Below are positions 6,001 through 9,000 of a stretch of 35,044 nt of DNA, piece after piece. The position numbers were made by a program. Position 1 is the first letter of the stretch. The number at the start of each line of letters is the position of its first letter. The DNA is taken from the NCBI GenBank assembly GCA_035289485.1, contig DATDXA010000063.1, positions 1 to 35,044 of the forward strand. Direction: 5' to 3'. The stretch comes from an archaeon. Its GTDB lineage: Archaea > Iainarchaeota > Iainarchaeia > Iainarchaeales > Iainarchaeaceae.

Positions 6001-9000
6001 GGATTCCACGGCCAAAAATCCTCTAATGCCTCCTTTTAGCATCCAGCACACAAACGGCGCAGCAAGGGCAGGCACGCTTGCAACTGCGCACGGCAAAATA
6101 AAGACCCCATTTCTGATGCCTGTTGCAACCAAGGGTTCGGTCAAGCTCCTCTCGCACGAAGAGGTTGAAGACACAGGCACGCAGTGCATGATTGCGAACG
6201 CATTCATACTTTCAATGAAGCCAGGCACCGAAGTCATTGAAAAGCTAGGGGGATTGCACAAATTCATGCACTGGGACGGAGGTCTTTTCACGGATTCAGG
6301 AGGTTTTCAGGTTCTTAGCAAGGAATTCTGCCTTGCGCTAACTGAAAAGGGCGTGAAGTTTCGCAACCCGTTCACTGGAAAGTCCATGATTTATACTCCG
6401 GAAATGGCAATGGAAATACAAAACACGCTTGGAAGCGATGTTGCAATGTGCCTTGATGATGTTCCGAATGCCGGCGAGCCGCTTGAGAGGATAAAAGAGG
6501 CGGTGAGGCGTACGGGGGAGTGGGCGGCGCGCTGCAAGCAGGCTCACGCAAACAAAAAGCAGCTGCTCTTTGGGATTGCGCAGGGCGGCACGCACGAAAA
6601 ACTGCGAGAGCAGAGTACGAAGCAAATTATCGGGCTTGGGTTTGATGGTGTTGCACTCGGAGGCCTTTGCATTGGCGAGACAAAAAACAAAATGTATGAT
6701 GCAATCAAATCCTCAATCAGGCTGATTCCGCAGGAAACTCCTAGGTATTTGATGGGTGTTGGCTCTATTGAGGAGCTTGAGGGCGCAATTGCAATGGGTG
6801 TCGATTGCTTTGATTCGCGCTTTCCAACAATCACTGCAAGGCACGGGCGAGCGTTCAGTACAAAAGGAAACATCAACATTGATTCAGCGGTTCACAAAGA
6901 GGATTCGGCGCCGCTTGATGCGGAGTGCAAATGCTTTGTTTGCAAAAAGCACTCGCGCGCATACATCCACCATTTGTTCCGCACAAAAGAGGAGAATGCC
7001 GGCAAGTATTTGAGCTTTCATAATTTGTTTTTTGTGCAGCAGAGAATGGCGCAGATAAGGAAGCGCATTTCTGAAGGAAATTTTTTAAAAAAATAACACT
7101 ACAAATATCTTACTTTTGATTTCCTTGCTGTGATGAGAACAAATGGCTGATTTTTAGTATCAAACTGCTCATATCTATTAAGAAGCAGCAAACCATCATG
7201 CGTTTCAAGGTTTTGTTCTGCCCTTTCTTTTAGTTTTACTTCTTTCAAGTAATCAAAAAGTTCTCTTCTAAAACTCTCTGAAGCTTGCGAACCATCACTC
7301 TGCTTAAGTTCATCTCGCCTATGCATAAATTCATCCAAAGTTTTAGCATTTTTTTCAGCCTGCGGGGTGCCGAGCCTTTTCACTTCCGCAGAAGCCATTG
7401 CTTTGGTTGTAACACCAAAGCCGTGCTGTGCAAGCTCTATTGAAATAAGTTTTCCATAGCCTTCTTCCTCTACCGTTTTGAATGTGGCTCCGGGCCTGAG
7501 TGTTCGCAATATTTGTTGGTATAATTCAACTCTTTGAGGGCGCGGAACATGCTGCAATAGGAAATGCGCATAGATATGGTCGAAACTATTTGGTTTTTCT
7601 GCCCGCAAAATATGCTGTGCCTCTAGCCCTGTTGCAATTTTCAAATTTGGAGGTATTTCAAAATGGCCTTGGCCATGCAAATATTCGCCGAGTGCACTTT
7701 TATTATGCACACGTAAATCGTTGGCAAAAAAGTTAACATCAGGATGCCTAAGCGCTAGGTCAACGGCCTTTTTCAAAATAGGCCCTTCGCCTAACCCTGC
7801 AACCCGCTTGATTTGCCTTGGCATGCTATTGACATACCTTTCTGAGTTTATAATTTTTGCACTTTGCAAATATAATTAGATATATCGCCCCCGCTGGGAT
7901 TCGAACCCAGGTCTCAAGCTCATTCCCAACCTTTTTCTTTTTCTTGGAAGAAAAAGAAAAACGTTGACGAAAAAGGAAAAAGAACAATTCCCGTTCCTTT
8001 TTCAACACTTTTCTTTTTCCCCAGGGTTTTTCTTTTCGTGTCAACGAAAAGAAAAAGGCTGGCCGGAAGCTCGCATACTATCCAGGCTATACTACGGGGG
8101 CATTACTAGATTGGCTTCGGAAAGCATTTAATCCTTCCAATTATACGGCTAAAATGCCCTTTGCATGCGCAGGGAAATGTTTTAAATATCCCGCAGGACT
8201 TATTTGTAACATGGAAAGGGACAGGATAATTGCGGTGGTTCTGATTGTTGGTTTCGTTTTCCTTGTTGCGGCACTCTTAGGGGTAGTTGCAATTACCGGA
8301 TTCATACTAGTGTTTACAGCCCCGCAGGATTCATCTCCAGCACCTTTGGATGCTGCGCCCCTTATTGAAACGGGCGATACGGATGCGGGGACAGGCAGCG
8401 GTACACCCGCGGGAAATGATGATGCGCCGGCAACTGATGAAAATCCGCCAGCAGAGCCCGCGGCGCCTGTTTGCGGCAACAACAAAAAGGAAAGCGGGGA
8501 GCAGTGCGAAACTGATTCACAATGCTCCGCCACCCAAACATGCAACAGCACCTGCCAGTGCGTAAATAAGCCGGTTGAAAAGGCCGCACTCAGGAACATT
8601 ACAATTACAAAGCTCAATTTCTGGTGCGCTCCGGATTTCAACGGCAAGAAAGGGCTTGCAATTAAGTTCATTGAATTCAAGAATTCAGGAGCAGCCTTTA
8701 CGCATGATGGGACAATCAGGATAACTGCGGTAACAGGAGAAACCACAGATTCTGTTCAGACCAATGCGGCCTTCAAGTTCAATATCCCATCTGGCAAGAC
8801 ACTTGGGCTTTACCAAAAGGACATACTAAGGGCTGATGCGCCGTACATATTCCTTGGCAGCACTCCGGACAAGACCAAAATTACGATTGACATCTCAGAA
8901 ACAGAATACATTGAGTATGAATACACCCTCAAGGGCAATGACTTCGGCTCTGTCGGATGCTTGTAAAGCAAATAGCTAACAAATAGGCGGATAATTTTCA

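Follow-up and report, generated by a model that had tools for sequence, protein, structure and literature searches.

The long intron of the tRNA-Arg(CCG) gene of an Iainarchaeaceae archaeon (Iainarchaeota) is filled by two inverted copies of a dispersed repeat of ~63 nt. Each copy is composed of a pyrimidine arm, a loop, the purine complement of that arm, a near-palindromic spacer and a second purine arm that mirrors the first; the element encodes no protein. On our best reading of its symmetry, it appears to belong to the intrastrand-triplex kind, of which bacterial examples are known; in this archaeon it is associated with the ends of tRNA exons. With moderate confidence we propose that the intron filler is a pair of copies of a mobile DNA repeat, that the strand which folds is most likely DNA, and that copies land or survive at tRNA exon ends.

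The sequence analysed comprises positions 1-35,044 of the forward strand of contig DATDXA010000063.1 (assembly GCA_035289485.1); this whole stretch of 35,044 nucleotides is denoted the window. ARAGORN with introns allowed placed the tRNA-Arg(CCG) gene, with an intron at the canonical site, at 7885..8102 on the minus strand, and orthologues are present in five congeners. By the ARAGORN boundaries, the 142-nt intron spans 7922..8063 (minus strand) and interrupts the gene at position 37/38, one base 3' of the anticodon; an intronless orthologue aligns across the site. A TATA-like box (TTAAAT, 8126..8131, minus strand), a weak candidate from a motif listing, precedes the tRNA start by 23 nt. The assembly through the intron is backed by contigs of four public DNA runs. 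One contig joint skips exactly 142 nt, setting the intron limits at 7921-8062 with 1 nt of ambiguity, and its shorter side has just 22 letters. We rejected this joint as a sign of excision, as it probably comes from an intronless relative. In the MFE fold, the first 16 intron bases pair with the last intron bases beside the splice sites; the fold shows the anticodon stem, a pair of 4-nt loops and a 16-bp helix formed by the intron ends, which differs from the strict 3-4-3 bulge-helix-bulge motif. Default ARAGORN (no introns) and Rfam at the gathering threshold found nothing in the window, and tRNA genes with such introns thus escape default tRNA and Rfam scans.

The intron is made of two inverted copies, as the earlier note on this DNA had described, and they occupy 126 of its 142 bases. 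Copy B (8000..8062, minus strand) adjoins the 5' exon. Read on the minus strand, it consists of a flank (8062-8057), pyrimidine arm (8056-8046), loop (8045-8038), purine arm (8037-8027), spacer (8026-8019), mirror purine arm (8018-8008) and tail (8007-8000), with a mirror identity of 11/11, a covariance model score of 79.4 bits and a DNA fold z of -4.4. Copy A (7926..7988, plus strand) adjoins the 3' exon and is inverted in the RNA. Its parts are the flank (7926-7931), pyrimidine arm (7932-7945), loop (7946-7947), purine arm (7948-7961), spacer (7962-7969), mirror purine arm with one extra G (7970-7984) and tail (7985-7988); the corresponding values are 13/14, 76.2 bits and -3.7. A short linker (7989..7999) separates the copies. 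The fixed scheme first put forward for the element, a short loop and a CGTTGACG-like spacer, proved too narrow, since copy B departs from it: this second copy of the intron carries a TTGAC-like motif in its hairpin loop and has CCCTGGGG as its spacer. More generally, the spacer is nearly a palindrome, and its first half has the left flank as pairing partner.

To count the element, we used a script that detects perfect hairpins in which one arm is entirely pyrimidine and the stem measures 9 or more. The script returned 31 hairpins in the genome and none in each of five local-composition shuffles. A covariance model built from 28 copies and searched against the genome likewise detected 31 full-length copies, all of them scoring at least 57 bits, with the best remaining match at 39 bits; both counts agree with the ~30 loci reported before. 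Rfam at E<=0.1 on 12 element-bearing loci matched rRNA, RNase P RNA and tRNAs, and never the element. A repeat in front of tRNA-Trp, considered as a possible further copy, proved to have another sequence.

Twenty-two of the 31 copies lie at tRNA or 23S ends or inside tRNA introns, in keeping with the earlier count of 21 of 30. On the 5' side, seven copies are located 3-7 nt before a tRNA and one lies 42 nt before tRNA-Gln; on the 3' side, eight follow a tRNA by 0-5 nt and one lies 21 nt past the 23S end; the remaining five are found within four tRNA introns. The orientation is fixed: all 33 tRNA-abutting copies seen in the genome studied, another genus and other small archaea turn their hairpin side towards the tRNA. 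This orientation was found in 15/15 flank copies and 5/5 intron copies of the genome studied, in 6/6 of another genus and in 12/12 of a species-wide scan. Inspection by eye of the sequences 5' of orphan copies revealed no common stem-loop or motif that might serve as a target. The idea that long introns are hosted by redundant tRNAs with C-starting anticodons alone was dropped, as long introns of this type are present in Val(TAC), Ala(GGC) and Tyr(GTA) of relatives.

Comparison with relatives showed turnover at these sites between species. The tRNA-Arg(CCG) intron measures 0, 47, 103, 140, 142 and 148 nt in six congeners, which bears out the species-variable intron lengths noticed earlier. In one congener all three arms of the intron copy are shifted from T5 to T6, and at the same tRNA-Thr and tRNA-Tyr sites other congeners carry different variants, each internally matched. 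At one protein-gene junction the element is absent in four congeners and present in two. A pair of 95%-identical copies is found in a tRNA-Tyr intron and a tRNA-Trp 3' flank, and duplications of the neighbouring gene end, of 20, 30, 37 and 57 bp, surround four copies. These empty and filled orthologous sites, the near-identical pair and the gene-end duplications support the mobility proposed in the earlier note, and suggest that the element moves as a unit. As in MITE and REP-like families, it is dispersed, multi-copy and variably present at orthologous sites; a short target-site duplication of fixed length was not seen, duplications being confined to four loci of 73 copies, with lengths of 20-57 bp, and none flanks a tRNA-adjacent copy. 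The same family of archaea holds 8-35 copies in 13 of 15 sampled genomes; two genomes of the family gave no match at E<=1e-7. Elsewhere in the order, most genomes hold none and those that match hold one or two copies; overall, 24 of 151 genomes match.

As a candidate mobiliser, the Y1 (HUH) transposase was rejected as far as it was tested: no element lies beside the gene at seven loci, and Y1_Tnp, detected in 9 of 23 genomes of the family, was not found in several that hold 11-28 copies. The genome studied contains one truncated Y1 transposase gene, at a contig end, and a TnpB domain was not found in it.

The position of the copies could instead reflect selection by the host for a gene-boundary module, in which a two-way transcription stop or insulator for tRNA and other genes, with T-runs on both strands and a stable fold, is joined to a self-contained flank that prevents leaders, trailers and introns from interfering with the tRNA fold, and mobility is secondary. 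The 3' copies set a T4-T5 run 0-6 nt past the tRNA end, where 12 of 33 tRNAs without an element have a run of at least five T within 40 nt, and of nine copies away from tRNAs, four begin 1-12 nt past a same-strand stop codon. Copies within the genome are fairly diverged (median identity 73%) and nevertheless keep their arms and structure intact, and orthologous copies remain intact in four species; this points to the individual loci being under constraint, and a function for the host could be the reason. However, T5-T6 runs are also present inside introns and apparent transcribed 5' leaders of single-copy tRNAs (Cys, Thr, Ser), where efficient stops would silence the tRNA genes themselves. In these leaders, TATA-type boxes are placed ahead of the element, with none separating it from the tRNA (0/8), whereas 15 of 35 tRNAs lacking a 5' element have a TATA-like box ending 24-36 nt before +1; at tRNA-Ser(CGA) the box lies 31 nt before the element. 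A terminator would have no use for the mirror arm, decaying copies occur at tRNA flanks and in an intron, close relatives have empty sites, and bacterial repeats of the same kind show no link to tRNAs (0/72). We regard a host-selected boundary module as less likely than the mobile repeat. The element probably has no function specific to tRNA-Arg.

The arms themselves have the symmetry expected of a triple-stranded fold. A third purine arm follows the hairpin in 29 of the 31 loci, on one side only, and matches the mirror of the second arm with a mean identity of 95.2% (perfect in 15 of 29). With stems extended beyond the pure pyrimidine run, identity to a copy's own mirror arm was 0.907, compared with 0.786 for the arms of other copies and 0.788 for the un-mirrored arm. 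None of 10000 re-pairings reached the own-arm match, also when just the 21 distinct arm variants were used; within each of these 21 variants of one genome the arms match one another, and the rare mismatches are private to single copies. In a set of 73 copies, 29 from the genome studied and 44 from relatives, the third arm repeats the base of the purine arm at all 11 positions in 55 copies, with a mean match of 10.48; shuffled partners gave a mean of 9.42 and, in 2000 shuffles, did not exceed 9.73. Three alignment columns switch as whole triads between T-A-A and C-G-G (45/23, 31/32 and 59/10). These results uphold the co-variation of the arms on which the first description of the element was based.

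The mirror arm might still be explained without third-strand pairing, as a product of low-complexity A/G sequence, of subfamily descent or of pairing with a T-rich partner, the hairpin alone being of importance. The arms are indeed of low complexity, so that un-mirrored arms and those of other copies still score 0.79; the copy after the 23S gene has a downstream pyrimidine tract able to pair with its third arm, and the third arms of inverted intron pairs can pair mutually. Yet most copies abut a tRNA without any fourth arm, the own-arm advantage persists with one copy per arm variant, three columns switch as complete triads and the arms match within all 21 variants; we consider this explanation improbable.

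The other modules covary as well. In the hairpin, 96.2% of cells are paired, compared with 52-68% in slid controls, and both sides change in 9 of 15 pairs, a result equalled in 0 of 500 shuffles. The spacer palindrome covaries in 3/3 pairs, with 85.7% of cells paired. The complementary run between loop and tail averages 3.72 within a copy and 2.71 between copies (0/10000 permutations), and 53.8% of loop-tail cells are paired in fixed alignment columns; loop and tail covary, as in a pseudoknot, in about half of the copies, and among orthologues a switch from ACAC:GTGT to GCAC:GTGC was observed. The 12 arm pairs are 99.4% Watson-Crick. Wobble, tested for strand bias to pick the folded strand, showed none, with 4 G.T and 6 A.C in 1095 cells (15 pairs). 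Such strict Watson-Crick pairing favours DNA over RNA as the level of folding, although the near-absence of wobble could alternatively mean that copies are young and not that selection acts on DNA.

Folding as RNA has a known precedent in the 3' triple helix of MALAT1 and MEN-beta, where RNase P cleaves upstream of a tRNA-like structure, and in the related ENE elements (PMC13541005); no archaeal example is named in the parts of that review drawn on here. By analogy, the leader cut off by RNase P would be a stable small RNA in which a U.A-U triplex plus pseudoknot holds the A-rich 3' end, and introns would behave likewise after splicing. The likeness concerns the 5' leader copies only, in which a U-rich arm, a turn, a second U-rich arm, a loop and an A-rich arm follow one another and end 3-7 nt before the RNase P site; the geometry suits a classical H-type pseudoknot whose loop 1, rich in U, occupies the major groove, seven leader copies have TATA-type boxes upstream of the element, and loop and tail covary. 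Nevertheless, an RNA triple helix is very unlikely, since G.U wobble pairs are nearly absent and show no strand bias, transcription reads the 3' copies, and 4 of 5 in introns, in the opposite, purine-motif orientation (a two-fold symmetry around genes), a motif that RNA supports poorly, and some copies occupy places of doubtful transcription. No holder of the sequence is listed among public RNA runs.

A mobile intrastrand-triplex repeat of DNA would act as follows. A single strand, most likely DNA, would form a hairpin of 9-15 bp with a 3-bp flank stem and turn at the near-palindromic spacer, whereupon the third arm would fold back onto the hairpin and run antiparallel to its purine arm. The predicted triads are A.A-T and G.G-C, or T.A-T and C+.G-C on the other strand. 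In about half of the copies, the tail would then pair with the hairpin loop to close a pseudoknot. Selection for this fold would keep all modules matched while the letters change. Copies would land or survive hairpin-first against tRNA exon ends, where RNase P, 3' processing and the splicing endonuclease would strip them from the RNA, and in an inverted intron pair the exon-proximal arms would pair together and hold the splice sites close. The purine-motif triplex and the loop-tail pairing compete over a few bases, a point that counts against the proposed fold.

The arm order, as read from the DNA, is that of class II triplex motifs on one strand and class IV on the other. Class II motifs (PIT, BoxC and TM_ECO; Holder et al. 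2015, PMC4666352, and Hoyne et al. 2000 as cited there) are described in the former as of unknown function. The class II (PIT/ITxF) domain order is present in 29 of 31 hairpin loci and in the 31 full-length model matches. According to the sections of PMC4666352 used here, PIT/BoxC motifs share with the archaeal element pyrimidine, purine and reverse-Hoogsteen purine domains on one strand with short loops, the matching pyrimidine-motif class on the opposite strand, a multi-copy and mostly intergenic distribution, and an association with local sequence instability. The likeness is one of architecture, without sequence alignment: the archaeal arms are A/T-rich rather than G/C-rich, and the archaeal element adds the near-palindromic spacer, the flank stem and the loop-tail pseudoknot, is tied to tRNA ends and introns in fixed orientation, and resides in an archaeal host. 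The terms tRNA, covariation, compensatory and duplication never appear in PMC4666352. Closer counterparts were found in the present analysis in rumen Clostridiales genomes, as A/T-rich three-arm repeats with identical arm sequences and order, multiple copies and a flank that covaries with the spacer start. They differ in having a perfect 5-bp G/C clamp instead of the 3-bp stem and palindrome, loops of 3-5 nt, and no locus of 72 near a tRNA. Our literature search found no paper describing such a repeat in archaea.

Related cases are known among archaeal tRNA introns. In 2010 work described in a review (Yoshihisa 2014, PMC4090602), near-same introns across isoacceptors were ascribed to intron transposition; intron gain was thought to take place at the DNA level, and the mechanism of transposition was called unknown, in the portion of the review considered here. 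The present element differs from that account in being a defined repeat that also occurs outside introns, at tRNA flanks, after stop codons and between genes, and in its triplex-type symmetry. In Caldiarchaeum, tRNA gene disruption has been attributed to a mobile element of 1.8 kb that encodes a recombinase (Sugahara et al. 2012, PMC3293823, as far as drawn on here), whereas our element is ~63 nt and non-coding. There, intron gain is accompanied by a stray 5' tRNA fragment upstream of the intact gene; similarly, in the genome studied, a fragment with the first 20 nt of tRNA-Gln is located upstream of an element copy.

The element appears to lengthen tRNA introns and perhaps founds them. In the intron-bearing congeners that hold two copies or a relic of these, the intron starts and finishes with terminal flanks of the element itself, which fits intron creation by the element. 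Tentatively, and with rather less confidence than the proposal as a whole, we suggest that a self-propagating DNA homes hairpin-first to tRNA exon ends and that an inverted pair inserted one base past the anticodon founds an intron, which would be spliceable because the element's own flanks and arms supply the helix beside the splice sites.

The covariation of all three arms, seen in dozens of copies from several genera, provides rare comparative evidence of selection for triple-stranded pairing in living cells, for bacterial relatives of this kind of repeat just sequence counts and in-vitro folding having been reported. The module is found in introns, at flanks and between genes, and its empty and filled sites and duplicated gene ends offer concrete loci for work on mechanism. 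The tRNA-Arg(CCG) intron, with its putative triplex folds, would illustrate how such introns grow, and the association with tRNA ends and introns is relevant to the way in which tRNA introns of archaea arise and lengthen. If the element does found introns, it would constitute a working mechanism of archaeal tRNA intron gain by way of a single strand that forms a triple helix.

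The tRNA-Arg(CCG) gene lies on the minus strand at 7885-8102, and its two exons are split by a 142-nt intron one base 3' of the anticodon. As the earlier note had claimed, this intron is made of two inverted copies of one module, with an 11-nt joint between them. Each copy runs through a 6-nt flank, an all-pyrimidine arm, a loop, a perfect purine complement (arm 2), an 8-nt spacer and a mirror purine arm (the third arm). The copy at 8000-8062, read on the minus strand, has an 11-nt arm, an 8-nt loop and a mirror match of 11/11; the copy at 7926-7988, read on the plus strand, has a 14-nt arm, a 2-nt loop and a mirror match of 13/14. 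The earlier scheme of a short loop and a fixed 8-nt spacer motif is too narrow. Contigs from four public DNA runs match the assembly through this region. An intron-free tRNA search and Rfam at gathering scores gave no match within the window. The long intron hides the gene at 7885-8102 from such default scans, so that automatic annotation of such genomes would under-count tRNAs.

A script search of the 1.16-Mb genome for perfect hairpins in which one arm is pure pyrimidine and at least 9 nt long detected 31 loci, and the same search on five shuffles keeping local composition detected none. At 29 of the 31 loci a purine arm follows, on one side only. A covariance model trained on 28 copies found 31 full-length copies at 57-79 bits, the next match scoring 39 bits, and gained two slightly damaged copies missed by the strict script. 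The previous count of about 30 three-part sites is borne out, and the observation of a tripartite element is real and strong.

The proposed clustering at tRNA and 23S ends and in tRNA introns was found for 22 of the 31 full-length copies: seven lie 3-7 nt 5' of a tRNA, eight 0-5 nt 3' of a tRNA, five inside the introns of tRNA-Leu(CAA), tRNA-Tyr, tRNA-Pro(CGG) and tRNA-Arg(CCG), one 21 nt past the 23S end and one 42 nt 5' of tRNA-Gln. Nine lie elsewhere, four of them beginning 1-12 nt past a stop codon. Sequence outside long reading frames makes up 11% of the genome, and tRNA borders are a tiny share of it. Orientation is fixed, with the hairpin side toward the tRNA exon and the third arm outward in 15/15 flanking and 5/5 intron copies of this genome. 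The hairpin likewise faces the tRNA in 6/6 tRNA-abutting copies of a second genus (among the 18 copies listed out of 29 matches) and in 12/12 such copies from a scan with one genome for each prokaryote species. The arrangement has two-fold symmetry about the tRNA gene and is therefore independent of the direction of transcription.

The copy 3' of tRNA-Glu(TTC) (contig C18, 5950-6210) has about 50 nt, comprising two small hairpins, within its spacer, and its third arm is displaced; with an additional degenerate 5' copy, this is the only tRNA of the genome flanked on both sides. On contig C29, a copy at 53180-53300 holds 52 nt of similar small hairpins inside its pyrimidine arm, and at 52809-52940 a tandem duplication contains two mini-elements, 81 nt apart, with 7-nt arms and a CGTTGACG spacer. 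The stretch 5' of tRNA-Trp (contig C49, 10250-10495) is a different repeat, and the triplex-type element lies on the gene's other side.

Among the 35 tRNAs lacking a 5' copy, 15 have a TATA-type box that ends 24-36 nt ahead of the mature 5' end, compared with none of the 8 that have such a copy. With a copy present, the boxes are found upstream of it, for example by 31 nt at tRNA-Ser(CGA), indicating that the 5' copies probably belong to transcribed leaders. In many element-free tRNA genes a TTTTAA, TTTAAA or TTTATA box stops about 27-32 nt short of the mature 5' end, implying very short leaders of a few nucleotides. T-runs of at least 5 follow 12 of the 33 tRNAs without a 3' copy, and oligo-T is therefore probably a stop signal in this genome. 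However, the element also places T-runs of at least 5 in leaders and introns, which speaks against a plain terminator. We regard a host-selected boundary or terminator role as possible but unlikely.

The third arm is on average 95.2% identical to arm 2 read in mirror image, and the match is perfect in 15 of 29 copies. When third arms were re-paired among copies, the observed match was reached in 0 of 10000 trials, and it was likewise never reached using one copy per arm variant (21 distinct variants); the un-mirrored comparison gives 0.79. Of 73 copies (29 from this genome and 44 from relatives), 55 have a third arm without a mismatch over the 11 scored positions, and three alignment columns flip between T-A-A and C-G-G as complete triads. 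The mirror third arm does co-vary with the other two, as first described, and the re-pairing result makes it improbable that third-strand pairing is lacking altogether.

In the same 73 copies the hairpin arms pair 99.4% Watson-Crick. The left flank pairs with the first spacer half across a C.C mismatch (one column holds A-U 15, G-C 9 and G-U 2), and the spacer is a near-palindrome in which all three pairs covary and 85.7% of cells are paired. In about half of the copies the tail, the stretch past the third arm, is the loop's reverse complement, across at least five unrelated loop classes, and this complementarity was higher within a copy than between copies in 10000/10000 permutations. In fixed alignment columns 53.8% of loop-tail cells pair; jointly with the spacer pairs, 67.9% are paired versus 24-33% in slid controls. 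An orthologous intron copy changes from ACAC:GTGT to GCAC:GTGC between species. A single strand would form the hairpin and turn, the third strand running back along the hairpin until the tail meets the loop, and the opposite strand of the same fold would be an H-type pseudoknot with its pyrimidine-rich first loop in the major groove. Across all 15 pairs in the 73 copies, wobble amounts to 4 G.T and 6 A.C among 1095 cells; this near-absence, without strand bias, argues for a constraint at the DNA level or on both strands rather than on a single RNA, and makes it very improbable that leaders and introns act as an RNA triple helix.

Comparison of tRNA-Arg(CCG) orthologues in six species of the genus substantiated the asserted variability of intron length, from 0 to 148 nt. 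One orthologue has no intron; a 47-nt intron consists of the two terminal flanks plus a purine relic; a 103-nt intron has one copy, all three arms having gone from T5 to T6; a 140-nt intron has two copies, the second decaying; and the introns of 142 nt (this genome) and 148 nt have two each. At two other sites, 5' of tRNA-Thr and inside the intron of tRNA-Tyr, species differ in variant, each internally matched, or have none. In this genome the tRNA-Tyr intron copy shares 95% identity with the one that lies after tRNA-Trp, compared with a median of 73% between copies.

At one protein-gene junction four congeners lack the element, which is present in this genome and its closest relative together with a 37-bp duplication of the downstream gene start (part of the relative's locus is masked). 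Similar duplications accompany three other insertions, one of the last 57 bp of msrB, one of the first 20 nt of tRNA-Gln and, in another genus, one of exactly 30 bp of a gene start; the duplicated relic lies on the hairpin side in 4/4 insertions with duplications. None was found flanking tRNA-adjacent copies. The last 57 nt of msrB stand on both sides of the element (contig C3, 40566-40745; about 2069-2250 of locus L029), and the two versions have 11 differences, each at a third codon position (0, 0, 11). The downstream relic keeps an open frame and an unchanged peptide, with the same layout in the closest relative; one possible cause would be homologous exchange with alleles of insertion-free strains.

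Of 15 genomes sampled from the host's family, 13 hold 8-35 copies according to the covariance model. In other families of the order matching genomes hold 1-2 copies and most hold none; overall, 24 of 151 genomes gave a match. In a second genus (genome G009, loci L070-L085), where the usual spacer is GCTGTACC and goes with the flank ACACC, another spacer-like motif and an A-run come after many copies, a possible fourth module. In the present genome, contig C40 carries an IS200/IS605-type Y1 transposase gene with an HUH motif, cut by the contig end (7975-8199; 1459-1683 of locus L045), with no element beside it.

The exact three-arm pattern from the window occurs at at least 124 loci in the collection of one genome per prokaryote species. 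Seventy-two form a bacterial family that, judging from record titles, is mostly rumen Clostridiales, with a covarying 5-bp G/C clamp (e.g. GCCGC/GCGGC, GCACC/GGTGC, GCGAC/GTCGC) and no tRNA nearby. This rumen repeat (L093-L215) is multi-copy, with the same arm sequences as the archaeal element and a recurrent CTTAAGAAG-like tail, and a stop codon precedes at least one of its copies (L097). The other 52 loci have other flank types, and the titles, seen for 80 of all 124 loci, include Iainarchaeum, Micrarchaeota, Diapherotrites and some non-Clostridiales bacteria; 9 lie within tRNA introns and 12 abut tRNAs. The structural kind is thus widespread, and the tRNA link is found only among the non-clamp loci, which include small archaeal genomes.

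In domain order the element matches the class II intrastrand triplex motifs (PIT, BoxC, TM_ECO), described for bacteria and linked with genomic instability; that account makes no mention of tRNA, covariation or duplication (PMC4666352). Two further papers report introns that transpose among tRNA genes of Thermoproteales by an unknown mechanism (PMC4090602) and a stray tRNA 5' fragment adjoining a mobile element in Caldiarchaeum (PMC3293823). Our search of full-text literature found no paper on repeats of the triplex type, whether in archaea or at tRNA genes.

The fold, the DNA or RNA level, the way of moving and any function are what we infer from sequence. The reading we prefer, to which we give about an even chance, is that of a mobile non-coding DNA repeat whose single strand would adopt a hairpin, third strand and pseudoknot, with selection keeping its arms matched. 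Copies would settle against tRNA exon ends, and the element would lengthen tRNA introns and may even found them.
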